From Escherichia phage phiWec177: a stretch of 64,000 bases of DNA. Under the pieces are notes generated by a model. It was not told the origin of the DNA. It saw nothing but the letters and a program-made list of their open reading frames with translations, and did no database searches. The stretch lies in the sequence record LC739532.1; one strand, written 5' to 3'. Shown in pieces: positions 31,341 to 62,590 of this stretch (the first letter of the stretch is position 1; each line of letters begins with the position of its first letter). The position numbers and the translations under genes were made by a program.

Positions 31341-31611
31341 AGAAAAGTGGGAGATTTTACCATTAGTCAGTGAAGGAGGTAATGGTTGTGAAATGTACAT
31401 GATACGTGGTCATGTTCCAGAGCCAATTGCACTTGAGATGGTAAACAACTTTACAGATGGTTCTTACAAAGACTTAGGAGAGCCAACTATAAAGCAGCAA
31501 TGGGTAAAGCCTGTACCAGACAGCACAGGTAACTGTAGTGTACTTTATCACGTTGTAGACCCTGCAAAATGCAAATCTGCAATGGCAGTAACAAACGTAA
31601 CTTTTGATTGA
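31333..31611 (+). CDS. hypothetical protein
   Basis: Track ORF. Confidence 0.3.
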   Translation: MAKEKWEILPLVSEGGNGCEMYMIRGHVPEPIALEMVNNFTDGSYKDLGEPTIKQQWVKPVPDSTGNCSVLYHVVDPAKCKSAMAVTNVTFD

Positions 31612-32504
31612 GAGAGAAAACTATGAAAACATCTATCCGTGTTACAGTTCATTCACCAACTAAAGGGACTCATGAAGAAGAGTTTAACATCGTCCAATTC
31701 CCTTCTGGTGAGATTGGTGGACACTTTTCACCGGAGTTTGTTGATTTCACTGCTTATGCAGCATCATCTATCAACAATGTGATTATGATTGTAAAAGGTT
31801 ATGATAAGGACACATTGTTTGCTGTGGCACTTGCTAAAGAAGCAATTGATGATTTAATTCCTCATGATTATGCTTTAAAGACTGTCATCTTTTACTACTT
31901 ACCAAATGCACGATATGACCGTCACATGTTTAAAGGCGACGCAGCAGCTTTAAAGGTTTTTGCTAAACAGGTAAATGCAATGGGGTTTGGTGCAGTCTGT
32001 GCAGTTGACCCTCACAGTTACGTTCCAGATAACCTGTTTAACTGCTTCCAGAGTATTCCTCAAAAGGAGATTGCAGTCCACTACGCAAATGACCCACTGA
32101 TTGATTACTTAGTAGCCCCAGATGCAGGTGCTGCTAAGAAGATTGCAGAGACTGCTAAAGAGGTGGATAAACCATACATCACAATGTCTAAAGTGCGTAA
32201 CCTTAAGACTGGTGAAATTACTGGTATGCGAATCCTTGATGATGTTGATTTGACAGATAAAACCGTCATGATTCTGGATGATATCTGTGATGGTGGTCGA
32301 ACCTTCATAGAAGCAGCGAAACATCTTCGTGAAGCAGGTGCAAAACGTGTGGAACTATATGTAACACATGGTATCTTCTCTAAAGATGTTGAAAACCTTC
32401 TTGACAATGGTATCGACCATATTTACACTACAAACTCTTTAGGCGAAGCTAAAGACCGTGGCTTAACACATTACAGTCAAGTTACTGTAGCAAACCTTGA
32501 TTAG
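31608..32504 (+). CDS. prs: ribose-phosphate pyrophosphokinase-like enzyme (Prs/Adps-like)
   Basis: PRTase-type motif VMILDDICDGGRTF; likely true start ATG 31623 (MKTSIRV); ribose-phosphate versus ADP-ribose substrate cannot be told by eye. Confidence 0.75.
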   Translation: MREKTMKTSIRVTVHSPTKGTHEEEFNIVQFPSGEIGGHFSPEFVDFTAYAASSINNVIMIVKGYDKDTLFAVALAKEAIDDLIPHDYALKTVIFYYLPNARYDRHMFKGDAAALKVFAKQVNAMGFGAVCAVDPHSYVPDNLFNCFQSIPQKEIAVHYANDPLIDYLVAPDAGAAKKIAETAKEVDKPYITMSKVRNLKTGEITGMRILDDVDLTDKTVMILDDICDGGRTFIEAAKHLREAGAKRVELYVTHGIFSKDVENLLDNGIDHIYTTNSLGEAKDRGLTHYSQVTVANLD

Positions 32505-32512
32505 GTAACAGT

Positions 32513-33004
32513 ATGAATAAGGGTTATTTTGAAAAATACCTAATATATGAACCAGATACAGGTTTATTAATTTGGAGAGTAACCCTTTGCAGTACCGCTA
32601 TTGCTGGTAATGTGGCTGGCACAAGGTCTAAGAAGGGTTATATCCAAGTCCAGATAAATAAGAAGAGGTACTATGCACATAATATTGCATGGATTATGTC
32701 TGGAGGTGAGATACCAAGTGGATATGAGATAGACCACATAGACCTTGATAAAGCTAATAATAAGTTGGAGAATTTAAGACTTAGCACAAAGTCACAAAAT
32801 CAGAGGAATAGGGGTATACACAAGAATAATAAAACTGGTGTGAAGGGTGTAAGTTTTTGTAAACAAACAGGTCTTTACAAAGCAAGAGTCATGCTTTACC
32901 GTAAAGAATACTTTTGTGGAAGATTTAAAACGGTAGAAGAAGCAAAAGAAGCTGTAATTAAAAAGCGAATAGAACTTCATGGTGAGTTTGCAAGACATAA
33001 CTAA
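32513..33004 (+). CDS. HNH homing endonuclease (HNH plus AP2-like)
   Basis: 163 aa; EIDHIDLDKANNKLENLRLSTKSQN; C-terminal AP2-like; paralog of 9102-9617. Confidence 0.75.
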   Translation: MNKGYFEKYLIYEPDTGLLIWRVTLCSTAIAGNVAGTRSKKGYIQVQINKKRYYAHNIAWIMSGGEIPSGYEIDHIDLDKANNKLENLRLSTKSQNQRNRGIHKNNKTGVKGVSFCKQTGLYKARVMLYRKEYFCGRFKTVEEAKEAVIKKRIELHGEFARHN

Positions 33005-33019
33005 GAGAGAGATTAAAAG

Positions 33020-34801
33020 ATGACTAAATCACTTTATGCAGTACCAGCAGGTCTTAATGCAGATGCTTACAAGGCATCACATATATATCAGTATCCAGAT
33101 GCTACGCAATATCTTATGTTGAACCTGACACCACGTAGTGACAAATGGTTTAACAGCCCTTTAGCAATTGACGGTGTAGTGGCTTTTGGTATTCAACGTT
33201 TTGTTAAAGATTACTTGATAGACCACTGGAACGCCACTTTCTTTGAACGTGACAAAAAAGAAGCAATTGACGAAATCTTAGAAGTCATGAACGGTGTTCT
33301 AGGTAAAGATGCTATCGGTCGAGAGCATTGGGAAGCACTTCACGACTTAGGTTATCTACCAGTTGAAGTATACGCTGTAGAAGAAGGCACAGTTGTCCCT
33401 ATGCGTGCCCCAATGATTGTCTTCCAGAACACTATTTCAGGTTTCCATTGGGTAGCTGGGTATCTGGAAGATGCTTTCTCTGCTGAGATTTGGAAGGCTT
33501 GTACCATTGCAACTATTGCATTGCACTACAAACGTATCTGTAAGAAGTGGGCTGACCTTACTTGTGACAACGACTTGCATCTACCCTATCAGTGCCATGA
33601 CTTTGCTATGCGTGGTATGTCCGGCTTTACTGATGACGCATTTAACGCTGTAGGTCACTTAACCAGCTTTAAAGGAACTGATAGTTTCCCTGCTGTTTAT
33701 ACAGCTAAACGCATCTACGGTCAGTCCTACCCAATCTCTGATATTGGTAACTCTGTACCAGCCACTGAACACTCTGTAATGTGTGCAAACATTGCTTGGG
33801 AAGGTGGTAATGAGTTGATTGAAGAAGAAAGACGCTTTAAAGGTGAGTTACAAACCTTCCGTCGTTTCTTAACAGAAACTTACCCAACTGGTATTGCAAG
33901 TATTGTTTCAGATACTTACAACTTCTGGAGAACTGTGTCAGAAATCTTACCAGCACTCCGTAAAGAAATTATGGAACGTGATGGCAAACTGGTAATTCGC
34001 CCTGACTCTGGAGACCCTGTACATATTGTCACAGGTTATAAAGCAATTCACTTAGAGTGTGCTAAGAAGGCTTATTACGAGCACCTAAGCAAGCTAGAGG
34101 CAAGTGACACAATGCTGAACTCTGTCCTGAACATGAAGCTTGAAAACATCAATTATGGTATTGCTGGATGGCTACTGTCAGAAGGCTACGAAATGGTTGT
34201 TGACAGAGAAGACTTTGAAGTTGCTGATACAGTGCTGTTGAAAAATGCTTATATGGTTGGTTCTGCAAACGTTGTAACACGTCCTGTAGCGGAGATTGAT
34301 GGAGCTATCAAGACACTGTATAACATCTTTGGGGGAACTATTAACTCTAAAGGGTTTAAGGTACTGGATGAGCATATCGGCCTTATCTATGGTGACTCTA
34401 TCACGCTGGAACGTGCAAACGAAATCCTGAAGCGTCTGTATGAAATGGGTTTTGCAAGCTCTAACGTAGTGTTTGGCGTAGGCTCTTACACTTACCAGTA
34501 CATGACTCGTGACACCTTTGCATTTGCTGTTAAAGCAACTCTTGCAAGCATTGGTGGTAAAGAGATTATGCTTGCAAAAGACCCTAAAACAGATAGTGGT
34601 GTTAAGAAGTCTGCTTTTGGTGGTGTAGCACCTATGTGGGATGGTGATAAGTTGAAAGCTGTAGATGGCTATGGATTCCAGAGCTTTGCAGATGCACTTG
34701 ACCACCCAGCTTGTGCTTTACGTTTAGTCTTTAGTGACTCTGAGCAGTACGGTTACACATCTCTTGGTGATATTCGAAATAATATTGACAAGCAGCTTTA
34801 A
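33020..34801 (+). CDS. nadV: nicotinamide phosphoribosyltransferase family protein (NAMPT/NadV-like, possibly Namat)
   Basis: 593 aa with NAMPT-like stretches ADAYKASHIYQYP, HDFAMRGMSGF...SFKGTDS, IVSDTYNFW...IRPDSGDP. Confidence 0.85.
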   Translation: MTKSLYAVPAGLNADAYKASHIYQYPDATQYLMLNLTPRSDKWFNSPLAIDGVVAFGIQRFVKDYLIDHWNATFFERDKKEAIDEILEVMNGVLGKDAIGREHWEALHDLGYLPVEVYAVEEGTVVPMRAPMIVFQNTISGFHWVAGYLEDAFSAEIWKACTIATIALHYKRICKKWADLTCDNDLHLPYQCHDFAMRGMSGFTDDAFNAVGHLTSFKGTDSFPAVYTAKRIYGQSYPISDIGNSVPATEHSVMCANIAWEGGNELIEEERRFKGELQTFRRFLTETYPTGIASIVSDTYNFWRTVSEILPALRKEIMERDGKLVIRPDSGDPVHIVTGYKAIHLECAKKAYYEHLSKLEASDTMLNSVLNMKLENINYGIAGWLLSEGYEMVVDREDFEVADTVLLKNAYMVGSANVVTRPVAEIDGAIKTLYNIFGGTINSKGFKVLDEHIGLIYGDSITLERANEILKRLYEMGFASSNVVFGVGSYTYQYMTRDTFAFAVKATLASIGGKEIMLAKDPKTDSGVKKSAFGGVAPMWDGDKLKAVDGYGFQSFADALDHPACALRLVFSDSEQYGYTSLGDIRNNIDKQL

Positions 34802-34814
34802 AAGTATATGATAA

Positions 34815-34840
34815 GAGGCTCCTACGGGAGCCTTTTTAAT
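34815..34840 (+). terminator. rho-independent terminator
   Basis: GAGGCTCC-TACG-GGAGCCT then TTTTT. Confidence 0.6.
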
Positions 34841-38931: not shown

Positions 38932-38947
38932 TAAGTAATTTCTTAAA

Positions 38948-38973
38948 AGGCTGCTTCGGCGGCCTTTTTTATT
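38948..38973 (+). terminator. rho-independent terminator
   Basis: GGCTGC-TTCG-GCGGCC then TTTTTT. Confidence 0.55.
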
Positions 38974-39031: not shown

Positions 39032-39580
39032 ATGAAGAAATTGATTCTAGGTTTGTGCTTAATGTTTACAGCACACTTATCTTATGCAGTTGACTGCCCA
39101 GAGCTATCAATTAGCCAAAAAGTAAACATGTTAAAAGCTTACCAGTATGGTGAGAATAACATGGGTAAAGGTTGGGGTATCACTCTAGCTGCTATAGCCT
39201 TACAAGAGTCAGAGTTAGGTCTGAAGGTAGAGAATAAAAAGACACATGATTATGGTATTTTCCAGAATCACTTGAAGACTGTTGTAAAGCGTAACAAAAT
39301 TAGTCCTAATGTGGCTAAAAAGAAACTCTTAAAAGACTTTGACTATGCTGCGAAGGAAACGCACAAAGAACTTGAGTTTTGGACAAAGGTGCATGGTCAG
39401 CCAAAGTCAAAGAAGATTTTACAAAAAGTTTTAGCATCATATAATGCTGGGTATTCGTACAGAATCCCTAAAGCTAAGAAATATTCTCAAGATGTCTATA
39501 ACAACATGAAAGTTATCGCTCAATGTGAATTTGCAACAAACATTTCTAAGGTAAATCATGAAAAAATTAAGAAAGTCTGA
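39032..39580 (+). CDS. secreted lytic transglycosylase-like protein
   Basis: Signal peptide MKKLILGLCLMFTAHLSYA; ...ALQESELG...GIFQ...SYNAGYS resembles the SLT-domain E-S / GLMQ / AYNxG pattern. Confidence 0.45.
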   Translation: MKKLILGLCLMFTAHLSYAVDCPELSISQKVNMLKAYQYGENNMGKGWGITLAAIALQESELGLKVENKKTHDYGIFQNHLKTVVKRNKISPNVAKKKLLKDFDYAAKETHKELEFWTKVHGQPKSKKILQKVLASYNAGYSYRIPKAKKYSQDVYNNMKVIAQCEFATNISKVNHEKIKKV

Positions 39581-40253
39581 TGAAGTACTGTGCCATGCTT
39601 ATGACTTGCATCCTCATGAGTTAGGTCTTGATTCTGACATATGGACTCCAGAACAGTGTAGGGATTTTGAAGACACCGCAAGAGAAGTTGTATGTTCACT
39701 CGAAGAGTTCCACACATCAGAGCCAATTGTGAATGTTGTAGATAAAGAGACTGGACAAACTATAGGTGTGAGTCGTGATAGCTTAGTCATAGTCAATAAA
39801 GACCTTGTAGAAAAAGGGAATCTCATCTTAGCAGATATTGATGGTGTTCTTACAAATTTTAATCACGAAGATTGCTCAACGGAATTGACCGACGGTTCAT
39901 TCTCGCAGTATACCAATCTTCTTGATTCTGTAAGAGCAAAGCCGACGTATGTTTTCAATATCATTGATGCAATTGCTAATCATGCTGCTGTTGGACTCTT
40001 GACAGCGAGAGGTGAATCTCAGAGAATACCTACTGAGATGTTTTTAAGGCATAACACAGAGCATGACTACATGCTTTTTATGCGTGGTTTTGGGACTAAC
40101 TCTATAAGTGCAGAAAGTTTGAAAGTGAGGATAATTCAGTCTTGCATTCTGCCTTACTTTAATATAGTATGTTTTATAGAAGACACAGAGAAGAATGTGC
40201 AGAAGGTGAACAGAATCCTTCCACACATTAAAACCATGTTAGTTAAACATTGA
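39558..40253 (+). CDS. HAD-family phosphatase-like protein (possible 5'-nucleotidase)
   Basis: LILADIDGVLTNF matches HAD motif I (DxDGxL). Confidence 0.45.
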   Translation: MKKLRKSDEVLCHAYDLHPHELGLDSDIWTPEQCRDFEDTAREVVCSLEEFHTSEPIVNVVDKETGQTIGVSRDSLVIVNKDLVEKGNLILADIDGVLTNFNHEDCSTELTDGSFSQYTNLLDSVRAKPTYVFNIIDAIANHAAVGLLTARGESQRIPTEMFLRHNTEHDYMLFMRGFGTNSISAESLKVRIIQSCILPYFNIVCFIEDTEKNVQKVNRILPHIKTMLVKH

Positions 40254-40738: not shown

Positions 40739-40768
40739 CAGGCTCCTTCGGGAGCCTTTTTCATTTTA
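40739..40768 (+). terminator. rho-independent terminator
   Basis: CAGGCTCC-TTCG-GGAGCCT then TTTTT. Confidence 0.6.
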
Positions 40769-40780: not shown

Positions 40781-41128
40781 ATGACATTTAAAGAGTTCTG
40801 TCAAGCTACTTTCATAATTGTTTTCTTAGTTGGTGCAGGTGTCTGGGGAGGATACTCTTACAGAGACTATCAAGTTGCTGAAACTGAGCTAAACAATCAA
40901 AAGCTCATAAGTGTTGCTAAAGATGCTTATCAGGAAGGATTAGTCACACTGAGCACCAATTACAAAAATGATTTGAAAGATGTGCTTGCTAAGAATAAGC
41001 ATACAAAAGAGGTACTAACATATGAAAAAACTAAGCCAGAGTTTTATAATGTTTGTGTTACTGATAACTATGTCAGGGTGTTCAACGAACAAAGTGAGCA
41101 GTACATTCAAAAACTCCCAAGTAAGTGA
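40781..41128 (+). CDS. hypothetical membrane-anchored protein
   Basis: N-terminal hydrophobic FIIVFLVGAGVWGG. Confidence 0.35.
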   Translation: MTFKEFCQATFIIVFLVGAGVWGGYSYRDYQVAETELNNQKLISVAKDAYQEGLVTLSTNYKNDLKDVLAKNKHTKEVLTYEKTKPEFYNVCVTDNYVRVFNEQSEQYIQKLPSK

Positions 41129-41291
41129 GAGTGATAAGTACACTCAAGAAGAATCACGGTATATCATCAAAGGTAACACAGGCAGTGATGTAGCAGCAGC
41201 CCTTGAGTCCTATCGTGACGGCTTTTACCAGTGCACAATCAAAGCTAACAACCTTATTGACATGATTTTATTAGGAAATAAACAGCAATGA
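41022..41291 (+). CDS. putative lipoprotein
   Basis: MKKLSQSFIMFVLLITMSGCSTN signal with lipobox-like MSGC; overlaps previous ORF in another frame. Confidence 0.45.
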   Translation: MKKLSQSFIMFVLLITMSGCSTNKVSSTFKNSQVSESDKYTQEESRYIIKGNTGSDVAAALESYRDGFYQCTIKANNLIDMILLGNKQQ

Positions 41292-41557
41292 CAGAGAATG
41301 AAGATACTTTTTACGTAGAAGGGTACTTACTGTTACCACGCCCAAAAGAAACTTATATGCGAATTGACTTCATACCAACCATTATGGATAATGTGATGTG
41401 TCATATCTTTATGCAGGGTGTCACAGCACAGCTTAAGCATGTTGGTAAAGACTGCAAAATAAAGGTTGACACTCATCCAGAAATCAAAGAGAATCACTAC
41501 ACATGGTTCTTACCAGATTCTAAAGAAATCTTAGCAGTTCTTAAAACGAGGAAGTAA
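41288..41557 (+). CDS. hypothetical protein
   Basis: Track ORF. Confidence 0.35.
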   Translation: MTENEDTFYVEGYLLLPRPKETYMRIDFIPTIMDNVMCHIFMQGVTAQLKHVGKDCKIKVDTHPEIKENHYTWFLPDSKEILAVLKTRK

Positions 41558-41559
41558 AT

Positions 41560-41889
41560 ATGCAGATTAATGGAAGAGACTTTGTAGCCGTTTACTACGA
41601 CGAGAAAGATAAAGAAGTTGGCGTAGCACAAGTATCTTATGGCAATGGTAAGTGGTTGTATGGGACAATCGCAGTAGTCGGAACAAGAAGTGATACAAAA
41701 ACTTTTAAAGACTGTGTTGACCTTCTTGAAGAATCCATCCATAATCATTGGTGTCTGATATGGATGACTGACAACGAAGTGATAGAACGCTTCAAAAAGA
41801 TTGGTATCAACATTGATAGCATTGAGCATGTTGACTTGTATGAGCTAACTGAGAAGGTAAACTATGAAAGTAATACTAGCCAGAGATAA
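41560..41889 (+). CDS. hypothetical protein
   Basis: Track ORF. Confidence 0.35.
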   Translation: MQINGRDFVAVYYDEKDKEVGVAQVSYGNGKWLYGTIAVVGTRSDTKTFKDCVDLLEESIHNHWCLIWMTDNEVIERFKKIGINIDSIEHVDLYELTEKVNYESNTSQR

Positions 41890-42097
41890 AAAGACCCGCA
41901 AGATTGTACGTTCAGCAGTATTCATAGGGAGAGATGAAGTCGTCCCGTTTGCAGGGGAAGATGTGCTAACTTATAAGAAGGGTTTAAAACGTAAATTCAG
42001 TGACCGTTTACGCGGCTTCATCTCTGAACCATTAGAAGATTTCAAAAGTCGCTGTGGCGAAGGCATCATCATCCAAGAGGCAATTATTCATGGCTGA
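41864..42097 (+). CDS. hypothetical protein
   Basis: Track ORF. Confidence 0.3.
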   Translation: MKVILARDKKTRKIVRSAVFIGRDEVVPFAGEDVLTYKKGLKRKFSDRLRGFISEPLEDFKSRCGEGIIIQEAIIHG

Positions 42098-42290
42098 CTT
42101 CTGCAAAGATTGTGCTATCGAAATGTTCGGACGTGATACAGGTGACTTAAAAGGTCTTATCACTGAAGATGACTTTAAAGCTGGCTATGCAATGCCAGTA
42201 ATCTGTGAAGGTTGTGGATGTATCTGGGTAGACCACGAAGGGCAACGTGTAAAGCCTTCAGAAGATAAAGAATCTTGGGAGAGATGTTAA
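42054..42290 (+). CDS. hypothetical Cys-rich protein
   Basis: CKDC ... CEGCGC pairs. Confidence 0.3.
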   Translation: MAKASSSKRQLFMADFCKDCAIEMFGRDTGDLKGLITEDDFKAGYAMPVICEGCGCIWVDHEGQRVKPSEDKESWERC

Positions 42291-43070
42291 ATGGGTATTG
42301 TAAAAGTTGTAAAAGGTAACTTACTAGCTGCCTTCAAAAACACAGACATTGAGTTAATTGCTCATGGTTGCAACTGTCGTAACCTCATGGGTGCTGGAAT
42401 CGCTCAAAAAATTGCTAAGATTTTCCCAAAAGCTGAAGAAGCTGACCGGAAGTTCCATAAAAAGTTTGGCTACAGTGCCCATGATATCGGATACCAGATG
42501 GCTGGTGAGGTGTCACATGCTCGAACGGAGTATGGTTACATTTTTAACCTATATACACAGTTGGATGTTGGGAAGTGTGCATCATACCGATACTTAGTGG
42601 AGTCACTAGAAAAACTCCGTAAATTTTGCTGGCTGCACAACATTCGTAAGATTGGTTTACCCATGATTGGGGCAGGTATAGGCGGTTTAGATGCACAAGC
42701 TGTGAAAAGCCTCATTAATAGTGTTATGTATAACGTTGATGTGTACCTATACGTCTATGATGAAGCAATGGCAAGTGTAGTTACCACTAAGTATGCTACC
42801 TCAGCACCACAATTCTATGATGGTGTCGTGCTAAGTGACGGGAAGACTAATCAAGTTACCCTCTATCAGCTTGTTGATGGCAAGGTTGAGGTTAGTTACC
42901 CTCTGGTTAGTGAGATGGGTATGTGTAACAGTGAAATGTTCCCAGTTGACCCGTTTGGAAGATATGAAGGTGTATTCTTTGATAACTACCCAGCAGCGTA
43001 CATCTACACAACAAATCAGGATGAAGTTCACTACTTGCTGTATTCTAAAAAGTTCAAATTCATAAGCTGA
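42291..43070 (+). CDS. macro domain protein (ADP-ribose binding/processing)
   Basis: VVKGNLLAAFKNTDIELIAHGCNCRNLMGAGIAQKI and later IGLPMIGAGIGGLD resemble macro-domain G-rich motifs. Confidence 0.6.
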   Translation: MGIVKVVKGNLLAAFKNTDIELIAHGCNCRNLMGAGIAQKIAKIFPKAEEADRKFHKKFGYSAHDIGYQMAGEVSHARTEYGYIFNLYTQLDVGKCASYRYLVESLEKLRKFCWLHNIRKIGLPMIGAGIGGLDAQAVKSLINSVMYNVDVYLYVYDEAMASVVTTKYATSAPQFYDGVVLSDGKTNQVTLYQLVDGKVEVSYPLVSEMGMCNSEMFPVDPFGRYEGVFFDNYPAAYIYTTNQDEVHYLLYSKKFKFIS

Positions 43071-43465
43071 TTAGTACTTCACAGTATCTACAAATCATCT
43101 AAGAAGGCTGCCTAACCCATTGAAAAATTTAAGGTAAGGCGGCCTTTTTCATTTTCAATTTGTGCAGGTATCTGGAGGGGTCTGTACAGATATCCCAAAA
43201 AATCTCATCGCCGGATAGAAAAATCATTTTCAAAACGTGCAGAGAAAAATCAGGTCGGGCAAGAAAAATCATTTTAGAATTGTGCAGGTAGGTGGGTGTA
43301 GGTGGGGATGTCGCCATTTCTCACAAGGCTACCACATCTAAAAAGAAAAGTCAACAGAAAAATTTGTAGCGGATTGAAAAATAATTCTTGATTGTAGTTC
43401 TGTTTTGTGGTAGTCGTGCGCGCCCGTTCCTCTCCCAAACTTACAAAAATATTTAATAAAAACTA

Positions 43466-43543: not shown

Positions 43544-43750
43544 ATGTTATATCAACGCCAATTGATGATTGTAGACAATAACAAGACTAAAAAGCGCCGT
43601 TTCTTTATGCTTATTTGTGATGTATGGCAACGTATCTCAGAAAAGGATTTTGATAAATATGTTGATACATCAATCAGGTCAGATTGTTATTTGACAAATC
43701 ACACAAGACAGTTTACAAGACATACAGCAGTTTACTACTATGACGTTTAA
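43544..43750 (+). CDS. hypothetical small protein (cassette gene 1)
   Basis: Preceded by CCTAAACTGGAGATTCTAAAATG module. Confidence 0.45.
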   Translation: MLYQRQLMIVDNNKTKKRRFFMLICDVWQRISEKDFDKYVDTSIRSDCYLTNHTRQFTRHTAVYYYDV

Positions 43751-43761: not shown

Positions 43762-43923
43762 AATGATTAAAGAAGGCAATGTAATAAGCTACAAAGATTT
43801 AGACGGATACCCAAAAATTGGGAAAGTTTTCTACCTTTACAAGTCAGTGATGGATAATGACTGCATAGCCCTAACAAATGGCGACAAGATAACCATGAAA
43901 GATTTTATAAAAATTATTTCATA
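43762..43923 (+). CDS. hypothetical small protein (cassette gene 2)
   Basis: 53-codon ORF MIKEGNVISYKDL... below track cutoff; fills gap before repeat A1. Confidence 0.3.
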
Positions 43924-44011
43924 AAGTGCTTTACATGGGGTTTAAAAAGGTAGTATCTTAAGCCCCAGATAAAGAGCTTTACCACTCAATCCTAAATTGG
44001 AGAACTTAAAA
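43922..44011 (+). repeat. intergenic module type A, copy 1
   Basis: Hairpin GGGGTTTAA...TTAAGCCCC then AGATAAAGAGCTTTACCACTCAATCCTAAATTGGAGAACTTAAAA before ATG. Confidence 0.7.
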
Positions 44012-44392
44012 ATGGCATACCGCGCACCGAAATTCATCAATAAAGAAAATTTTCGTAATGTATTAGAGAAGGCGCTTGATGAAAAATTTAACGGCAAAAT
44101 AATTGTTGTTCACTCGTTCAATTTTAAGTATGATATCAACGGGAATAAAATCAACCATTACACGGCAACCATGTTAGATGGTACTCTTTCAAGTGAAAAA
44201 ACAATTCTCCATGCACTTGCAGGACGTGGTAAAAACCTGATAAGATGCGATAAGAGACGTTATCAGGGTGGCGCATATGGTTATGATGATGCTGTTTATC
44301 ATCTTGAAAATATGGGCTATTCAGTGGAAAAAGCTGGAGTGTCTCAAATAATCGGCAGTGACGGCTATGTGACAATTTTCAAAATTAACTAA
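44012..44392 (+). CDS. hypothetical protein (cassette gene 3)
   Basis: ATG at 44012 after type A module; track ORF 43997 starts at upstream TTG. Confidence 0.45.
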   Translation: MAYRAPKFINKENFRNVLEKALDEKFNGKIIVVHSFNFKYDINGNKINHYTATMLDGTLSSEKTILHALAGRGKNLIRCDKRRYQGGAYGYDDAVYHLENMGYSVEKAGVSQIIGSDGYVTIFKIN

Positions 44393-44480
44393 TAAAGTAC
44401 TTTACAGGGGGCTTACAGTTCGATAAAGTAAGCCCCAGATAAAGAGCTTTACCACTCAATCCTAAACTGGAGTTTCAAAA
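44393..44480 (+). repeat. intergenic module type A, copy 2
   Basis: AAAGTACTTT palindrome, hairpin GGGGCTTAC...GTAAGCCCC, conserved AGATAAAGAGCTTTACCACTCAATCCTAAACTGGAG. Confidence 0.75.
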
Positions 44481-44777
44481 ATGAAACTATCAAATAAAGC
44501 CCGTGAAAATCTAAGCAAGTTACTTAACAAAATTGATTTTATTGAAACATCAAGGAATAGTCATGATGTTATGGAATGGTTACACGGCAAAATAAAAGGC
44601 CGTCGTGTAGTAATTTGCTTATGGAATAGTTGCAGGGAATATAAAAAACCTGTATTACAAGTCAATATCTACGATGATACTTTTAAAAGCCCTGTAAAGT
44701 CTAAAAGCGATTTATTAGAATCTTATGAGATAACTGTAAGTGGCAAAGTATCACGTAAAGAGGAAACACCGTGTTAA
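44481..44777 (+). CDS. hypothetical protein (cassette gene 4)
   Basis: Track ORF after module A2. Confidence 0.45.
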   Translation: MKLSNKARENLSKLLNKIDFIETSRNSHDVMEWLHGKIKGRRVVICLWNSCREYKKPVLQVNIYDDTFKSPVKSKSDLLESYEITVSGKVSRKEETPC

Positions 44778-45103: not shown

Positions 45104-45120
45104 TTTTGGTTTTTAAAACA

Positions 45121-45193
45121 AGTAAATTACTAATCAACGGTGAGGGAATGAACTTCCCCACTAAGTAAAGTCCTTAAACTAGGAGATTCAAAA
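45121..45193 (+). repeat. intergenic module type B, copy 1
   Basis: ATTACTAATCAACGG, hairpin GGGAATGAACTTCCC, then ACTAAGTAAAGTCCTTAAACTAGGAGATTCAAAAATG. Confidence 0.7.
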
Positions 45194-45466
45194 ATGTATA
45201 CTACTAACAACGGTCGCACTTTAAACGTAACCCTACGCCACTATGTGAACGGTGTAATGCACTTCGAGGATTTACAAGCCGAACAACACATTTTAGATTG
45301 GCAACTTGCAGGACTCCAAAAAACTGTTACAGGATACGGGAAAAAGATTCCAACTAGCTGGAAAGTATACTACGAAGGCCGTTTGCGCAGAATTTATCAA
45401 GATGTATACAGCAATAGCGCAACAAGTTACATCATGGTAAAAGGTAAAAAGCTGCATTTAGCATAA
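45194..45466 (+). CDS. hypothetical protein (cassette gene 6)
   Basis: Track ORF after module B1. Confidence 0.45.
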   Translation: MYTTNNGRTLNVTLRHYVNGVMHFEDLQAEQHILDWQLAGLQKTVTGYGKKIPTSWKVYYEGRLRRIYQDVYSNSATSYIMVKGKKLHLA

Positions 45467-45552
45467 AGTACTTTACAAGGGGCTTATAGTTCGATAAAGT
45501 AAGCCCCAGATAAAGAGCTTTACCACTCAATCCTAAACTGGAGAACTTAAAA
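45464..45552 (+). repeat. intergenic module type A, copy 3
   Basis: Near-identical to copy 2. Confidence 0.75.
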
Positions 45553-45957
45553 ATGGCTATTAATAACCGTGAATTATCAATTTTAAAAGCACGTTTGACC
45601 GTTAACCGGATTAATGTTATTACGTCATCAGCACCAGATGAAACATTGCACAGCATTATTGGGAAGATTCAAAGTATTATTTTAGACGTTGAAAACGTAA
45701 AAAGTTCATTGGCTGACGTTGCAGCAGGTATCACGCTAGACGGTGCGCAATATGAAATGATTGATATGCTAGGCAAATCTAAGGTAATGAATAGGGAGTT
45801 AGATTTGAAAATGTTTAGATTTGCTGTTAAAGTATGGCTATCCGTCGAGTATGACGCTAATTTTGCAATCGCTGATTTCTTTGCCACTTGGTTACAACGT
45901 AATTTGACAAATCACGATTTTCGTGATGTCTGTGATGCAATTTATGCAGAACTCTAA
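45553..45957 (+). CDS. hypothetical protein (cassette gene 7)
   Basis: Track ORF after module A3. Confidence 0.45.
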   Translation: MAINNRELSILKARLTVNRINVITSSAPDETLHSIIGKIQSIILDVENVKSSLADVAAGITLDGAQYEMIDMLGKSKVMNRELDLKMFRFAVKVWLSVEYDANFAIADFFATWLQRNLTNHDFRDVCDAIYAEL

Positions 45958-45966: not shown

Positions 45967-45995
45967 TTGACACTGATTTTTAGATAGGTTAAATT
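45967..45995 (+). promoter_or_regulatory. sigma70-like promoter
   Basis: TTGACA-17 bp-TAAATT just upstream of module B2. Confidence 0.45.
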
Positions 45996-46057
45996 ACACA
46001 TCAACGGGGAGGCGATAACCTCCCCACTAAATAAAGTCCTAAACTGGAGATTCTAAA
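45989..46057 (+). repeat. intergenic module type B, copy 2
   Basis: ATCAACGGGGAGGCGATAACCTCCCCACTAAATAAAGTCCTAAACTGGAGATTCTAAAATG. Confidence 0.75.
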
Positions 46058-46261
46058 ATGGCTATTATCAACGGCTTACACATTGAAACAACTCACATCA
46101 AAGATATTAAAGTTGGTGATATAGTTCTCTTTCACGGCGTAGAAAAAACTGTCACGGCGAAAGATATTACAGAAGAATCTTTCATGGGCCGGTCACTCTT
46201 CGGTGATTCTTATTGCTTAGGTTACCGTGCAGTTTTAAAAGTTGTCAAAAATAACAAATAA
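46058..46261 (+). CDS. hypothetical small protein (cassette gene 8)
   Basis: Track ORF after module B2. Confidence 0.45.
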   Translation: MAIINGLHIETTHIKDIKVGDIVLFHGVEKTVTAKDITEESFMGRSLFGDSYCLGYRAVLKVVKNNK

Positions 46262-46346
46262 AGTACTTTACAAGGGGCTTAAAAGTTGGTATCTTAAGCC
46301 CCAGATAAAGAGCTTTACCACTAAATCCTAAACTGGAGATTCAAAA
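46259..46346 (+). repeat. intergenic module type A, copy 4
   Basis: AAAGTACTTT, hairpin GGGGCTTAA...TTAAGCCCC, AGATAAAGAGCTTTACCACTAAATCCTAAACTGGAG. Confidence 0.75.
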
Positions 46347-46889
46347 ATGAAATGCTTTCATGGTACTACTCAAGAAAACTTTATCAACCTGATTAATAAC
46401 GGTGATAAACCATCGGGCGCATGGAATTGTTCGGATATGGACGGCAATTTTTACGTTTATCCAGAAAATAAAATCTATGGCGACGATGAGGAAGAGATAA
46501 CAGCCGAAGGTATCCAACAAGCTCTAGGCAATGCCACTATCACCGCAGCTTTTCAGATGAAGACTCAAAATATTGTTATCTTAGAACTCGATATTCCAGA
46601 GGATGAGCTAAACGATGATTATTCTTGTGATAATATGTCGAGTGTAGCAAGTTTTACAGAGTACTTTGATGTAAGTTGGATTAAAAAGGTTTACGTAACA
46701 GAATTTAATGCGATGTATTCGCCTTTTTGTCTTCCTTCACTGGATAACCCAAATATGAACTATCTTGATGAGTCTCTGGAGCTTCTCGCTAAAAGTGTTC
46801 AACAGTCGGACAGTATTCAGGTTTTTTGTGACATCATGGATACACTAACGGGAAACATCACAGAGAGAGACTTAAAGAGCTTTTTTTAA
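46347..46889 (+). CDS. hypothetical protein (cassette gene 9)
   Basis: 180 aa, acidic; no motif recognised. Confidence 0.45.
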   Translation: MKCFHGTTQENFINLINNGDKPSGAWNCSDMDGNFYVYPENKIYGDDEEEITAEGIQQALGNATITAAFQMKTQNIVILELDIPEDELNDDYSCDNMSSVASFTEYFDVSWIKKVYVTEFNAMYSPFCLPSLDNPNMNYLDESLELLAKSVQQSDSIQVFCDIMDTLTGNITERDLKSFF

Positions 46890-47188: not shown

Positions 47189-47204
47189 ACAAGCCTGATA
47201 AAAA

Positions 47205-47279
47205 TCTGTAAATTGTCAATCAACGGGGGGGGGGAATGACCTTCCCCACTAAATAAAGTCCTAAACTGGAGATTCTAAA
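47205..47279 (+). repeat. intergenic module type B, copy 3
   Basis: AATCTGTAAATTGTCAATCAACGGGGGGGGGAATGACCTTCCCCACTAAATAAAGTCCTAAACTGGAGATTCTAAA. Confidence 0.75.
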
Positions 47280-47528
47280 ATGTATACTAAAACGCAACTT
47301 AAAAGCATGGTTAACAATGGTTTAATGGATGAAGTCTACAAAGAATGTAGACGCTATGGAAAAATCATGGATAAGTCTAGTTATGAGTATACTCACACAA
47401 TAGATTTCAAAACTAATGAAAAACAAACTGACTTTATCACTGTAATAGTTATTGAATATAAACACTTGCTGTGGACTTTTGAGCTAGTAAAAGGTGAGTG
47501 TATAGAAATCGAATACAAAGACGCTTAA
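47280..47528 (+). CDS. hypothetical small protein (cassette gene 11)
   Basis: Track ORF after module B3. Confidence 0.45.
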   Translation: MYTKTQLKSMVNNGLMDEVYKECRRYGKIMDKSSYEYTHTIDFKTNEKQTDFITVIVIEYKHLLWTFELVKGECIEIEYKDA

Positions 47529-47607
47529 AAGTACTTTACAGGGGGCTTAAAAGTTGATATCTTAAGCCCCCAGATAAAGAGCTTTCCTAAACTGGAGATT
47601 CAAAAAG
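47526..47607 (+). repeat. intergenic module type A, copy 5 (shortened)
   Basis: AAAGTACTTT, hairpin GGGGGCTTAA...TTAAGCCCCC, AGATAAAGAGCTTTCCTAAACTGGAG. Confidence 0.7.
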
Positions 47608-48142: not shown

Positions 48143-48291
48143 TCAATAACTTACAAAAAACTTTTAAAAAAGTGTTGACAATACCCCTTGACATTGGTAA
48201 CTTTGTTCGAGGGGGTTTATCTAAAAGGGATTCACTTAAAAGATTCTTTATAGATAAGCTTAAAAATTGCTTGCATTCAACTATCAAAACA

Positions 48292-48361
48292 AGTAAATTA
48301 CTAATCAACGGGGAGGCAATAACATCCCCACTAAATAAAGTCCTAAACTGGAGATTCTAAA
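48292..48361 (+). repeat. intergenic module type B, copy 4
   Basis: ATTACTAATCAACGGGGAGGCAATAACATCCCCACTAAATAAAGTCCTAAACTGGAGATTCTAAA. Confidence 0.75.
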
Positions 48362-48892
48362 ATGAACAAATTTCAAGCTATCAACCACATTCGTTCAAAT
48401 AGTGTCATGTCTAAGCCTGTTAAAGACACATATGAGTTCCGTTGTAATGGGGTACACTTTGCAACCATCACTAAATCAGAAAACGGGGCTTATTACGTTC
48501 ATCGTCGTAATGTTTATACCGTTGTAGTCTCTCACTTTATGCAAGCTGTAGCAGAGTTATTACCGTTATTCTTAGAGATTTACTTAGATGAGTGTAAAAA
48601 CGTTCACAACCACGTTAAAAACCTTTTAAACGGTTATAAAATGGCTTATGAGCGTTCTATCAAGTCCTTAAACAAGTTCTATAAAGCCCCTGCAAATACT
48701 GTTTCAATGGCTTACAGTGTAAGCGGTGAGTTGGTTAGTCTCTTCGAAGTGGAAGAAATCGAACTATATAACTCACGCCCTAGCGGTTACTCTAAGACAC
48801 TGGGAGAGGGCTTATCTTTCAATATCAAGAACTTAGAGAAAACTTTAAAAGATATTGAAAAAGATATTGACGAGACAATCAAAAATCTGTAA
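48362..48892 (+). CDS. hypothetical protein (cassette gene 14)
   Basis: 176 aa; its 3' end is part of repeat module B5. Confidence 0.45.
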   Translation: MNKFQAINHIRSNSVMSKPVKDTYEFRCNGVHFATITKSENGAYYVHRRNVYTVVVSHFMQAVAELLPLFLEIYLDECKNVHNHVKNLLNGYKMAYERSIKSLNKFYKAPANTVSMAYSVSGELVSLFEVEEIELYNSRPSGYSKTLGEGLSFNIKNLEKTLKDIEKDIDETIKNL

Positions 48893-48959
48893 ATTGTCAA
48901 TCAACGGGGAGGGAATGACCTTCCCCACTAAATAAAGTCCTAAACTGGAGATTCTAAAA
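48876..48959 (+). repeat. intergenic module type B, copy 5
   Basis: Near-identical to copy 3, including upstream AAAATCTGTAAATTGTCAATCAACGG. Confidence 0.75.
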
Positions 48960-49207
48960 TGGCAACTATCCGCGCCACTGTTAACGAATTTGGTTTTTAC
49001 TCTCTGGATGTTAAATTTGACCTTGTAGGCACTGACAACGCCTTTGAAATGGTGAAAGGTCTTATCAGTCAGACCATCAAGGACTATAACCCCTCTAATG
49101 AGTTCTGGAAAGAAACAAAACAGGAAGTTCTTAAAGATGGTTACACTTTTCACTATTGGGGTGAAAAAATCGTCTCCCTGTACTACGACAAAGAAGGCAC
49201 TAACTAA
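48960..49207 (+). CDS. hypothetical small protein (cassette gene 15)
   Basis: Track ORF after module B5; last plus-strand gene before the noncoding region. Confidence 0.45.
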
Positions 49208-59735: not shown

Positions 59736-59812
59736 CTCTGTTTAGCTCAGCTTGGTAGAGCGTTCCGTTTGGGGCGGTAAGGCCGGAGGTTCAAGTCCTC
59801 CAACAGAGACCA
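59736..59812 (+). tRNA. tRNA-Pro (anticodon TGG), tentative
   Basis: Acceptor CTCTGTT/AACAGAG, D-arm GCTC..GAGC, loop TTTGGGG, T-arm GGAGG-TTCAAGT-CCTCC, CCA encoded. Confidence 0.7.
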
Positions 59813-59819
59813 AATTAAT

Positions 59820-59894
59820 GTCGTAGAAGGCAAATGGTTAGCCACCTGACCTTCAATCAGTTGCTCGCGGGTTCGAATCCCGTCTACGACTCCA
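59820..59894 (+). tRNA. tRNA (anticodon TTC, Glu?) tentative
   Basis: Acceptor GTCGTAG/CTACGAC, T-arm GCGGG-TTCGAAT-CCCGT, CCA; anticodon loop CCTTCAA. Confidence 0.6.
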
Positions 59895-59977
59895 AATTTG
59901 ACAGAAGACCAAGTACAGCAAACAACTTTACTTTTCGCGCATAGAAAACTTAAAATTTTGGTCTGGTCATAAAAGTT

Positions 59978-60054
59978 CGCGGGTATAGAGAAAGGGCGTC
60001 TCACATGTCTCATTAGCATGGTATCGGCAGGTTCGACTCCTGCACCCGCCTCCA
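59978..60054 (+). tRNA. tRNA (anticodon CAT; Met or Ile2)
   Basis: Anticodon arm CATGT-CTCATTA-GCATG, T-arm GCAGG-TTCGACT-CCTGC, CCA. Confidence 0.65.
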
Positions 60055-60138
60055 AATTTACAGAAGACCGTTTACAGCAACATTTATTAAATTTTTAGCG
60101 GAAAAAATTGAAAGATACGGTCTGGTAATACTAAACAT

Positions 60139-60214
60139 GGTTAGGAAGCACATAAGGTATGTGCGGTCGCCTGTTAAGCGAATGGCACAGGGTTCGAATC
60201 CCTGACTAACCGCA
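60139..60214 (+). tRNA. tRNA-Asn (anticodon GTT), tentative
   Basis: D-arm GCAC..GTGC, anticodon loop CTGTTAA, T-arm CAGGG-TTCGAAT-CCCTG; 3' end lacks full CCA. Confidence 0.6.
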
Positions 60215-60223
60215 AAATTAAAT

Positions 60224-60311
60224 GTGTCGTTATCCCGTAGATGGTAGCGGTGGGGACTGTAAATCCCTTGTCATTGAGACTCGGTAGGTTCGACTCCTAC
60301 ACGGCACACCA
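60224..60311 (+). tRNA. tRNA-Tyr (anticodon GTA), class II
   Basis: Acceptor GTGTCGT/ACGGCAC, anticodon arm GGGGA-CTGTAAA-TCCCT, long variable arm, T-arm GTAGG-TTCGACT-CCTAC, CCA. Confidence 0.7.
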
Positions 60312-60333
60312 ACACTTAGCGAGATACTTAGTT

Positions 60334-60762
60334 ATGAGAGATGAAGTATACAAATCACAACTTGGTATGAGTTTGGGAACTGCACAAAACAGACTAGTAA
60401 AAGATTTGCTATTCGATTTTATATGTAAGACAAATCAAAATAGATGTTTTCAGTGCGGAAAAGAAATGACTAGGGATGATTTCTCTATCGAGCATAAGAT
60501 TCCGTGGAGACATAGTGAGAATGCAAAAGAGCTTTTCTTTTCACTAGATAATATTTCTTATAGTCATCTTAAATGTAACATGAAAGCAGCAAGACCAGCA
60601 CAGATAAGTGAAAGAAAACATAAAACAATTAAACACGGAACTGCGTATAGCTATTTTAAAGGCTGTAGATGCGATGAGTGTAGGCTGGCTAAGAATGCTG
60701 AGAGTAGAAGAAACTATAGTCCAGAAAGACGTAGGAAGAAGTATCTAAGAAATGGTACATGA
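60334..60762 (+). CDS. HNH endonuclease inside the tRNA array
   Basis: Start at internal Met (MRDEVYK...) of track ORF 60241-60762, whose N-terminal part overlaps tRNA-Tyr; CFQCGKEM...SIEHKIPW...N...HLKCN HNH pattern. Confidence 0.7.
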   Translation: MRDEVYKSQLGMSLGTAQNRLVKDLLFDFICKTNQNRCFQCGKEMTRDDFSIEHKIPWRHSENAKELFFSLDNISYSHLKCNMKAARPAQISERKHKTIKHGTAYSYFKGCRCDECRLAKNAESRRNYSPERRRKKYLRNGT

Positions 60763-60766
60763 ATTT

Positions 60767-60842
60767 GGGGTATTAGTTTAGACGGGTAAAATACGGGATT
60801 GTCTCTCCTGAGCCGCGAGTTCGATTCTCGCATACCTCGCCA
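60767..60842 (+). tRNA. tRNA-Asp (anticodon GTC), tentative
   Basis: Acceptor GGGGTAT/ATACCTC, anticodon arm CGGGA-TTGTCTC-TCCTG, T-arm GCGAG-TTCGATT-CTCGC, CCA. Confidence 0.6.
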
Positions 60843-61270
60843 ATTTTGAGAGGGCTATTTAGCCCCTCCCTTAAAGAGTTCTTACGAGTATTCTTTAAAG
60901 GAGCAGAAGACCAAATTCAGCAAGTTACTTAAAATTTCAAGCCAATTTAATTTTGAAAAATTTAAAACTTGGTCTGGCTCAACAAATTTACAGAAGACCG
61001 TTTACAGCAAAACTTAAACAATCTATTTCTCGGTAAAGAAAAGGCGAAGGTTCGATTCCTTCACTCGGCAGATGTCGAGTTGGTGTAATGGTAGCACTTA
61101 AGATGATAAACAACGGTCTGGTAATTATCTTTGTAGATAAGTTATTAAGCTTACCTGTGAGTATGCGACCACAAAGGGTGAAAGGGTAAATTCTAGATTT
61201 AAACCCAAAAAGGCACATCGCTACAGACCTTAAGCAAGTCTGGGTAGCTTATCTACAAAGATAATTTAAT

Positions 61271-61346
61271 GGAAGTGTAGCAGAATGGTGATGCGGCAGA
61301 CTTTTAATCTGACAGGCGATGGGTTCGAATCCCTCCACTTCTACCA
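61271..61346 (+). tRNA. tRNA-Lys (anticodon TTT)
   Basis: Anticodon loop CTTTTAA, T-loop TTCGAAT, acceptor GGAAGTG/CACTTCT, CCA; T-stem only 3 clear pairs. Confidence 0.6.
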
Positions 61347-61351
61347 AAAAT

Positions 61352-61428
61352 GGTTCAGTCGCAGATAAGGTAATGCAAGGGTCTCATAAGCCCTATGAAT
61401 GTGGGTTCGATTCCCATCTGAACCTCCA
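61352..61428 (+). tRNA. tRNA (anticodon CAT; Met/fMet or Ile2)
   Basis: Acceptor GGTTCAG/CTGAACC, anticodon loop CTCATAA, T-arm GTGGG-TTCGATT-CCCAT, CCA. Confidence 0.7.
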
Positions 61429-61430
61429 AT

Positions 61431-61506
61431 GCTGTGAAAGCACATATGGATGTGCATTCGGCTGATAACCGAAAGGCAGAAGGTTCAAATCCTTCTCACA
61501 GTACCA
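61431..61506 (+). tRNA. tRNA-Ile (anticodon GAT)
   Basis: Acceptor GCTGTGA/TCACAGT, D-arm GCAC..GTGC, anticodon arm TTCGG-CTGATAA-CCGAA, T-arm GAAGG-TTCAAAT-CCTTC, CCA. Confidence 0.75.
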
Positions 61507-61521
61507 ATTTCAATAAAGTTG

Positions 61522-61550
61522 TTGACATTGAGATGTGACTACTTTATAGT
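61522..61550 (+). promoter_or_regulatory. sigma70-like promoter inside tRNA array
   Basis: TTGACA-17 bp-TATAGT. Confidence 0.5.
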
Positions 61551-61754
61551 AACCTTAGTTTTCGTTGCGTAGCGTCTATTTTGCAAATTTAAAATAAATG
61601 CAAACGACAATGTTTTTCTGGCAGTAGCTTGATAGGCTAAACACCAGTGAGGTCTTCCAATCCCTCATCAAAGAATTTGGCGTACTCGCCCACGGTATGA
61701 TTAATAAGGTGGGCATCTTTAAGGGCTTTCTAAGAGAGTCTTTAAAGATAATTA

Positions 61755-61836: not shown

Positions 61837-61979
61837 ATTTAGTTAGCAGATTACTTAGACGACCTAAGCGGGTCTTCCTGTAGGGAGGTGGTCTGTATCT
61901 CATGTTTTCAAGAACATGTAAATAATCTGAGAAGGGGCTTTACAGTGTTGAGATAATACGGTAAGCTTCGAATTATAGT

Positions 61980-62584: not shown

Positions 62585-62590
62585 AACAAT

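Follow-up and report, generated by a model that had tools for sequence, protein, structure and literature searches.

What is a macro-domain gene doing in a phage that also carries a pathway for rebuilding NAD+? The question is raised by an open reading frame (ORF) at 42291..43070 (+ strand) of the window, that is, the whole 64,000-nt stretch of Escherichia phage phiWec177 (LC739532.1) analyzed here. A first-pass annotation of this DNA had called the product a macro-domain protein and offered two roles for it, either reversing ADP-ribosylation or supplying ADP-ribose (ADPR) to a Prs-like/NAMPT-like pair. Both have since been demonstrated in phage homologues, the first for Tk.4/AdfM and the second for Adpp, and our analysis leans to the first. 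To judge from sequence, the most likely role of the protein is to reverse host ADP-ribosylation, not to feed the phage NAD-rebuilding pathway. Stated in general terms, it is very probably a hydrolase of ADP-ribose derivatives that acts in counter-defence. The more specific proposal, which we favour tentatively, is a two-domain counter-defence enzyme that, in the manner of AdfM, would strip phage DNA or some other macromolecule of ADP-ribose added by the host. What is new here is the class assignment of the macro domain, the loop and hidden Markov model (HMM) rule on which it is based, an orphan C-terminal domain, and a sharp allelic cassette in the lineage in which NAD+ reconstitution was discovered.

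The phage is a Felixounavirus (Felix-O1-type), 99.6% identical to Escherichia phage phiWec172, whose macro sequence is 100% identical. The ORF is a complete gene of 259 amino acids, stop codon included, exactly at the position and of the length given in the first-pass annotation, and phrog_335 ("phosphatase") covers residues 1–258 (E 6.5e-85). GenBank records already label the gene "phosphatase" or "Macro domain, Poa1p-like". A Shine-Dalgarno sequence, GGGAGAG (42277..42283, + strand), lies 7 nt 5' of the ATG by direct reading of the sequence, and the TAA of the small ORF upstream (42288–42290) abuts that ATG, which suggests that the gene is translationally coupled to the preceding ORF within a run of small + strand genes. 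The ratio of nonsynonymous to synonymous substitution rates (dN/dS) is 0.076–0.086 within the allele class, measured against Si3 and VpaE1_ev035, the two closest alleles for which DNA was compared; this range equals that of rIIB, the HAD/PNKP-like gene and orf134. For the macro part alone the ratio is 0.065–0.073; for the C-terminal part, two allele pairs give 0.10–0.12 and the third gives 0. The gene is real and under purifying selection in both domains, and at a within-class dN/dS of ~ 0.08 no positive selection was seen.

Sequence, profile and predicted fold alike bear out the macro-domain call of the first-pass annotation: the domain covers residues 1–157 (42291..42761, + strand) and falls in the Poa1p/TARG1/DarG clade. 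PF01661 matches residues 25–140 over profile positions 2–116 of 118, with 29 bits against a Pfam gathering cut-off of 22 (E 1.1e-6). A profile built from 32 homologues retrieves macro families of the PDB, the best match being TARG1/OARD1 (PDB 4J5S; E 5.9e-17), followed by the DarG macrodomains of M. tuberculosis (E 2e-15) and T. aquaticus (E 1.7e-14) and by yeast Poa1p (E 1.5e-11). An AlphaFold2 model made from the same alignment (predicted local distance difference test, pLDDT, 92.2; predicted template modelling score, pTM, 0.84) has the three-layer alpha/beta/alpha macro fold. In Foldseek comparisons its template modelling (TM) scores, normalized to target length, are among the best for DarG (0.84) and TARG1 (0.87), with Poa1p at 0.77 and a probability of 1.00 in each case. 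The Gly-rich motifs noticed earlier are real and conserved. The first, M33-GAGIA38, aligns with MGAGIA of TARG1 and contains G34-A-G-I-A38 (42390..42404, + strand), the ADP-ribose diphosphate-binding loop of macro domains; the second is P124-M-I-G-A-G-I-G-G132 (42660..42686, + strand). Most positions of both are invariant or at least 90% conserved among the 32 homologues.

Fifteen residues are invariant in the 32 homologues, including G9, H25, G26, N28, N86, L87, Q90, P124, G127, G129, I130 and G132, and the active-site residues among them are kept by all alleles. Two motifs hold the putative catalytic residues: H25-G-C-N28-C29 (42363..42377, + strand), in which H25, G26 and N28 are invariant, and N86-L-Y-T-Q90, placed by HMMER alignments to TARG1, in which N86, L87 and Q90 are invariant and which is followed by an 8-residue loop, L91–S98 (motif and loop together 42546..42584, + strand). 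H25 corresponds to H24 of Adpp and H23 of Poa1p. The substitution H24A abolishes the Adpp effect (10.64898/2026.01.28.702374), and a crystal structure of Poa1p H23A is listed in the PDB. N28 aligns by BLASTP with N23 of the PhiKZ AdfM, for which an N23A mutant has been described (PMC13309987).

TARG1, a single-domain eukaryotic protein, is the best PDB profile match and has the 8-residue loop and the histidine of the first motif in common with the phiWec177 protein, but the catalytic dyad is missing here: Q90 stands in place of K84 of TARG1, and G131 in place of D125 (F152 in Poa1p, Lys in T4 Tk.4). With DarG (PDB 5M31, 5M3I) and PhiKZ AdfM it shares the close structural superposition and the catalytic-site asparagine, and like DarG it is a two-domain protein with a macro and a C-terminal domain. 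The catalytic lysine of these two ("PTK"; K80 in DarG) is again Q90, however, and the DarG models are missed or weakly matched. The NCBIfam equivalog NF048014 gives 54.8 bits against a cut-off of 250 and covers only profile positions 2–165 of 338, while the PADLOC DarG model gives 56.5 bits over positions 2–151 of 329, the macro part only. Nor is there a cognate DarT gene beside the macro gene. Because the Lys/Asp dyad is absent and the DarG models fail or score weakly, the protein is, as far as sequence can tell, not of the DarG/TARG1 type and is grouped with T4 Tk.4 and Adpp among the Poa1p-like macro domains.

Within that group the two phage proteins with assigned functions counter different defences. 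Adpp belongs to NARP1, the NAD+ reconstitution pathway whose enzyme pair, Adps and Namat, was first identified in Bas63, a Felixounavirus (10.1101/2024.02.11.579819). Phosphorolysis of NAD+ by the RES-domain defence aRES yields nicotinamide and ADPR-1''-phosphate, which NARP1/Adps cannot use; Adpp, a Poa1p-like macro protein found in 15% of NARP1 operons, converts ADPR-1''-phosphate to ADPR (Osterman et al., 10.64898/2026.01.28.702374). The T4 gene tk.4, named adfM, is needed genetically for the resistance of T4 to DarTG2, and its knockout sensitizes the phage (HIDEN-SEQ, 10.1101/2025.11.20.689424). The gp104 protein of PhiKZ, also named AdfM, has been shown by biochemistry to remove DarT2-made ADP-ribose from DNA (Morgan et al., PMC13309987).

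One feature that separates the two classes is the loop between the conserved glutamine (Q90) and the next conserved tyrosine (Y99), which corresponds to the K84 catalytic loop of TARG1 near C1''. Loop length as a discriminator is an empirical criterion of our own rather than a published one. The loop has 8 residues in the phiWec177 protein (QLDVGKCASY), in all of its Ounavirinae homologues, in T4 Tk.4 and in TARG1, and also in every macro-only relative except one (P0028, 11 residues). By contrast, all 11 representatives of the NARP1-linked macro proteins, including the Adpp of Vibrio phage Gary (KNV71_gp137), have a loop of 12–15 residues with an aromatic residue at Q+3, which the phiWec177 loop lacks, and the loop that follows Q/S in Poa1p (PDB 6LFQ) is likewise long, about 15 residues. 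The motif before the loop differs as well, being YTQ here rather than YGQ: in the NARP1-linked set of Table S1 the counts are 75 LYGQ and 30 VYGQ (105 YGQ in all), 11 AYTQ and 2 LYTQ.

Two class HMMs, one built from the NARP1-linked set (Adpp class) and one from the macro-only set (Tk.4 class), point the same way. The phiWec177 domain scores 146.3 bits with the Tk.4-class model and 104.1, or 42 bits lower, with the Adpp-class model, figures to be read with the bias of the former toward this protein, which served as a query in retrieving part of the macro-only set. T4 Tk.4 has nearly identical values (144.8 and 103.9) when it is excluded from the model of its class. In leave-one-out controls the classes were 30–90 bits apart in most cases, with phiAbaA1 as an outlier at 1 bit. 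As an independent check, the macro protein of EmilieFrey, encoded beside phosphoribosyltransferase-like (PRT-like) and HAD-like genes, has a long loop and scores 169.5 with the Adpp-class model against 121, and that of the Kuttervirus SFP10, which is without such linkage, has a short loop. Since both loop length and HMM class match Tk.4 and not Adpp, the domain on balance belongs to the Tk.4 class. The same rule would give a simple, testable way of sorting thousands of phage "phosphatase" macro proteins into two functional classes.

The likeness to T4 Tk.4 extends to shared HGCNC, NLYTQ and P-x-IGAGIG motifs, to 33% identity over 159 residues, and to the fact that both are early or accessory phage genes outside NARP1 operons. 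The differences are that Tk.4 is a single-domain protein of 155 residues with no NARP1 seen in its genome, whereas the phiWec177 protein has an extra C-terminal domain of 95 residues and its phage carries NARP1. The class as a whole is mostly found in phages seemingly without NARP1 (among Escherichia-phage records, the macro protein occurs in 995 and Namat in 191), so the class has a role independent of that pathway. Counter-defence is further supported because Tk.4-class macro-only relatives lie two genes from a Tad2-like gene.

On this basis, the AdfM-like enzyme would work as follows. The macro domain would bind the ADP-ribose moiety in a cleft lined by the two Gly-rich loops, and would hydrolyze the substituent on C1'' of the distal ribose, with catalysis through the invariant H25/N28/N86/Q90 constellation in place of the TARG1/DarG Lys/Asp dyad. 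From the nearest characterized relative, the substrate would most likely be a macromolecular adduct made by an ADP-ribosyltransferase of host defence. The first candidate is the thymidine-linked ADP-ribose that DarT2 places on phage single-stranded DNA; ADP-ribosylated RNA or protein are possible substrates too. Hydrolysis would restore replication and release free ADP-ribose, which the NARP1 pair could recycle, an incidental benefit under the AdfM-like proposal. The anti-DarTG2 phenotype belongs to Tk.4 and for the phiWec177 protein is a prediction: if it is of the AdfM type, Felixounaviruses should be naturally resistant to DarTG2, and the anti-DarT macro family would gain a two-domain form.

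Several observations weigh against this assignment. The lysine of TARG1 and DarG is replaced by a glutamine that is invariant in the homologues, and the biochemically proven PhiKZ gp104 keeps the DarG-type lysine; on the PADLOC DarG model PhiKZ AdfM reaches 132.9 bits, our protein 56.5, Gary Adpp 44.6 and T4 Tk.4 36. That T4 Tk.4 removes ADP-ribose from DNA is itself a conclusion drawn from genetics (10.1101/2025.11.20.689424). Poa1p, the closest functionally assigned eukaryotic relative by motif, is a small-molecule phosphatase, and H25, the equivalent of the site at which mutation inactivates Adpp, is invariant. By BLAST the macro protein linked to NARP1 in the Pakpunavirus JG004 is slightly closer (86 bits, 36% identity) than Tk.4 (77 bits), with Gary Adpp at 53 bits. 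To the bias of the Tk.4-class model must be added that a neighbour-joining tree (100 bootstraps) supports the Ounavirinae clade at 98% and the deeper nodes at only 0–21%, so the tree was not used for class assignment. The gene order between Namat and the macro gene is conserved in divergent relatives, as described below. Finally, a literature search found no paper, and hence no biochemistry or other direct experiment, on any Felixounavirus macro protein.

The first-pass annotation did not mention a second domain, although 95 of the 259 residues form one. Residues 165–259 (42783..43067, + strand), which follow a linker helix (158–164), consist of six beta-strands and a terminal helix; they fold confidently in the full-length model and also when modelled alone (pLDDT 88.4, pTM 0.80). 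A fold search of BFVD with this domain returned only a Felixounavirus macro protein (E 0.0098) and assigned no fold. Searched against 1.84e9 representative proteins, its profile retrieved only Ounavirinae macro proteins, fragments of them, and a group of multi-stretch matches that was rejected as spurious; the two of these that were inspected are WD40-repeat proteins, aligned in 7–16 short stretches. Homology to the C-terminal domain of DarG was also considered and rejected, as neither the NCBIfam nor the PADLOC model aligns past the macro part. Residues 165–259 are thus a beta-rich domain restricted to the Ounavirinae lineage, with no structural or sequence relative outside it. Only P173 and G178 are invariant, and the domain is constrained within an allele and very different between alleles. 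Charge proved uninformative as a sign of nucleic-acid binding: alleles differ in isoelectric point (4.7 to 9.3) and have no constant net charge, a spread that argues against a conserved DNA-binding surface. The domain may act as an adaptor, either directing the enzyme to a variable partner or making contact with one.

The divergence between alleles is confined to a cassette. In blastn comparisons with FO1a, similarity is lost over most of the segment 42434..43223 (+ strand): there are matches at 41000–42433, a 43-nt stretch at 43128–43170, and matches again from 43224, so that similarity extends ~ 140 nt into the macro gene and resumes past its stop codon. The flanks are about 86–95% similar to Felix-O1-type phages at the nucleotide level, and 74% just downstream. 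Gene by gene, identity to FO1a is 97% directly upstream, drops to 40.8% in the macro gene, and is 93–97% in genes further downstream. Between alleles, identity falls from 60% in residues 1–50 to about 47% in residues 51–160 and 20–27% in the C-terminal domain. By megablast, the phiWec177 allele occurs in 12 records, which belong to 10 phages with E. coli or Salmonella as host; only in these 12 is the macro protein at least 95% identical, compared with about 41% in the other ~ 244 records, whereas for Namat the identity is 95–99% across more than 200 records of Felixounaviruses. Within the major allele class, too, there is diversity (64–93% identity).

Phage Si3 indicates how the cassette moves. 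Its flanking genes are 99.5–99.7% identical to those of FO1a, yet it has the phiWec177-type allele, which is direct evidence that the cassette is exchanged by recombination. As judged from these sequences, the diversity of the locus comes from the exchange of old alleles and not from rapid substitution. Genes in host-phage conflict commonly show such a pattern, and the orphan domain together with the sharp allelic replacement probably marks the locus as a site of such ongoing conflict. The small ORFs on either side of the cassette, at 41864–42097 and 43544–43750 (both + strand), are hypervariable among Felixounaviruses as well: for orf77 the identity is 77% to FO1a but 32% to Si3 and VpaE1, and for orf68 it is 55–58%. 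With identities of 93–99% in the surrounding genes, this places the macro gene within a small variable island.

The position of the gene relative to NARP1 bears on the second role. The Prs-like/NAMPT-like pair of the first-pass annotation is real, consisting by Pfam and NCBIfam of Adps (31608–32504) and Namat (33020–34801), and is orthologous to the founding Bas63 operon. The module spans 31608..34801 on the + strand, with an HNH_3/AP2 homing endonuclease gene (32513–33004, + strand) inserted between the two, as in Si3; in the divergent contig L012 the HNH gene is instead downstream of Namat. That the macro gene is near this module holds only loosely. The distance is 7.5 kb, or ~ 13 genes, comprising rIIA, rIIB, the spanins and several small ORFs, and three terminator-like hairpins intervene on the + strand, at 34813–34836 (closing the NARP1 unit), 38945–38968 and 40740–40757. 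Because of these hairpins, the macro gene would be transcribed separately from NARP1 and lies outside its operon. Also between the two, at 39558–40253 (+ strand), is a gene for a 231-residue protein with a HAD-type DxDG motif (ADIDGVL), labelled "polynucleotide kinase" in Si3. Its orthologues in the divergent contigs L010, L011 and L012 have weak Pfam matches to HAD_PNKP, and its location, with NARP1 on one side and the macro gene on the other, is conserved in synteny across Ounavirinae. Besides the macro protein, it counts as another candidate phosphatase of the region. No Pfam match was found for the small ORFs neighbouring the macro gene, and no darT toxin gene is adjacent. Neither Pfam scans of the neighbours nor the annotation of Si3 (read outside 50–57 kb, here and below) revealed an ADP-ribosyltransferase.

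Of the other explanations, the one that survives best, which we nevertheless regard as somewhat unlikely, is that the protein is an Adpp encoded away from its operon, an ADPR-1''-phosphate phosphatase that completes NARP1-AP in trans against aRES, after which Adps and Namat would rebuild NAD+. The phage has the founding type of NARP1, as the Adpp systems have NARP1 in their genomes, and 15% of NARP1 operons include a Poa1p-like macro protein, the Gary enzyme performing the required reaction. The survey that gave this figure covered genes within two of NARP1, and its Table S1 is without Escherichia or Salmonella phages (10.64898/2026.01.28.702374), so the Felixounavirus gene would have been missed. 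The active site is compatible, in that the H-x-C-N-C histidine is shared (H25, H24 of Adpp and H23 of Poa1p) and the TARG1/DarG lysine is absent, as in Poa1p; the 36% identity to the NARP1-linked JG004 protein also fits. In addition, the order Namat-rIIA-rIIB, then the HAD/PNKP-like gene, then the gene for the macro and C-terminal domains is kept in three divergent Ounavirinae-like lineages (L010–L012), although this synteny may merely reflect a conserved genome architecture of the subfamily. The class evidence, however, runs the other way: a loop of 8 residues without the aromatic at Q+3, the 42-bit deficit with the Adpp-class HMM, and an identity of only 26% to the proven Gary Adpp. The gene is ~ 13 genes from NARP1 and beyond three hairpins rather than within two genes, and Adpp lacks the C-terminal domain. 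A metabolite phosphatase would also give no obvious reason for a fast-diverging extra domain or for allele exchange. If the protein were nonetheless an unlinked Adpp, the published estimate that 15% of NARP1 phages beat aRES, being based on operon adjacency, would be a substantial underestimate. The AdfM-like and Adpp-like activities are not mutually exclusive, since removal of a 1''-phosphate and of a 1''-base would be the same type of reaction at C1'', and one enzyme could do both.

The domain structure and the cassette allow a further proposal, which we consider unlikely: a modular, cassette-exchanged factor in which the orphan domain recognizes or blocks a variable host defence protein and the macro domain removes the ADP-ribose product of that protein, perhaps also clearing ADPR-1''-phosphate. 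Such a factor would be a phage analogue of the DarG logic of an enzyme plus a stoichiometric inhibitor, built with an unrelated domain. If ADPR-1''-phosphate were cleared as well, the Felixounaviruses, several hundred of which have been sequenced, would already be aRES-proof through an unlinked component that operon-based surveys miss. These are therapy-relevant coliphages and Salmonella phages, and the lineage in which NARP1 was discovered.

It is decidedly improbable that the substrate is another soluble ADP-ribose derivative from host immunity or NARP1 chemistry, such as the cyclic ADPR (cADPR) isomers of Thoeris or by-products of ADPR-PP, with the ADPR produced silencing a signal, salvaging substrate, or both. 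The idea draws on context. The nearest macro-only relatives (L007, 11606–12073; L008, 2389–2856; L009, 11621–12028) are encoded two genes upstream of a Tad2-like gene (PF11195, Thoeris anti-defence) in metagenomic phage contigs, two of them of about 100 kb, with rIIA/rIIB-like genes further on. An unrelated phage enzyme, RyDEP, converts cADPR signals to ADPR that is used by NARP1, and ADPR-cyclic-phosphate, a by-product of ADPR-PP, accumulates in Bas63 infection (10.1101/2024.02.11.579819). But this evidence is purely contextual, no member of the class is known to cleave cADPR isomers, the Si3 annotation contains no cyclic phosphodiesterase partner, and evasion of Thoeris would leave the DarTG2 phenotype of T4 Tk.4 unexplained.

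The weakest alternative, and a very improbable one, is a non-catalytic ADP-ribose binder, either a sponge that sequesters ADPR or molecules derived from it or a sensor that docks on ADP-ribosylated targets with the C-terminal domain as effector or blocker; the missing TARG1/DarG dyad (Q90, G131), a GenBank record that labels the gene "high-affinity ADP-ribose binding module", and the existence of phage sponges for NAD-derived signals (Tad1 and Tad2) would suit it, but the invariance of H25, N28, N86 and Q90 in 32 homologues that are otherwise 30–50% identical fits an active site better, and relatives in the lysine-less class are active, as seen from the proven enzyme Adpp and the knockout phenotype of Tk.4. 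Stoichiometric sponges are usually small and highly expressed. Two further candidates were discarded. A regulator of a phage-encoded ADP-ribosyltransferase, by analogy to T4 Alt/Mod, finds no such transferase in the annotation or the Pfam scans. Clearance of tRNA-splicing or repair by-products, as for yeast Poa1p, is unlikely, given that the Si3 annotation shows no RNA ligase or Tpt1/KptA and only the HAD/PNKP-like gene.

Some features of related genomes may be recorded alongside. In L010, a homologue of ocr (PF08684, anti-restriction) at 14715–15056 lies ~ 4 kb downstream of the gene for the macro and C-terminal domains, consistent with an early anti-defence region. In EmilieFrey/Bas61 (L014, 402–1968), a HAD-like gene, a "phosphoribosyltransferase" gene and a macrodomain gene form a run. 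The macro protein there has 244 residues with an N-terminal extension of ~ 90 residues and is of the long-loop Adpp class, and the PRT-like protein has no BLAST similarity to Adps; the three genes might make up another kind of ADPR-handling module.

Downstream of the macro gene, two families of intergenic repeats punctuate the region. The first, of ~ 111 nt, occurs in 4–5 copies (43906–44016, 44376–44486, 45447–45557, 46242–46352 and 47528–47570), each with a promoter-like CTTTACA, 17 nt and a box overlapping a GGGGCTTA...TAAGCCCC hairpin; copies lie ahead of one small early gene after another, none of them directly upstream of the macro gene. The second, of 63–71 nt, occurs in 5 copies (45115–45177, 45981–46060, 47203–47282, 48286–48364 and 48882–48961) and consists of a GGGGAGG...CCTCCCC hairpin followed by a conserved ACTAAATAAAGTCCTAAACTGGAGATTCTAAAATG that includes a ribosome-binding site and a start codon. 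Elsewhere in the window, Rfam RF00028 (63.8 bits, gathering score 50) identifies a Group I catalytic intron at 10218–10501 (− strand), situated between two DNA-polymerase ORFs (9614–10168 and 10398–12581, − strand); the polymerase of the RefSeq Si3 genome is given as two separate coding sequences. At 19490–19987 (+ strand) is a gene for a 165-residue SegE-like GIY-YIG endonuclease (PF19835, 97.7 bits). Its apparent counterpart in Si3, gp061, as matched by size and gene order only, carries the label "NAD synthetase", probably a misannotation. Lastly, 16 tRNA genes (Rfam RF00005) at 59736–63157 (+ strand) follow the gene for a 471-residue DUF2828/DUF7788 protein (58155–59570), which is called "RNA-binding protein" in Si3.

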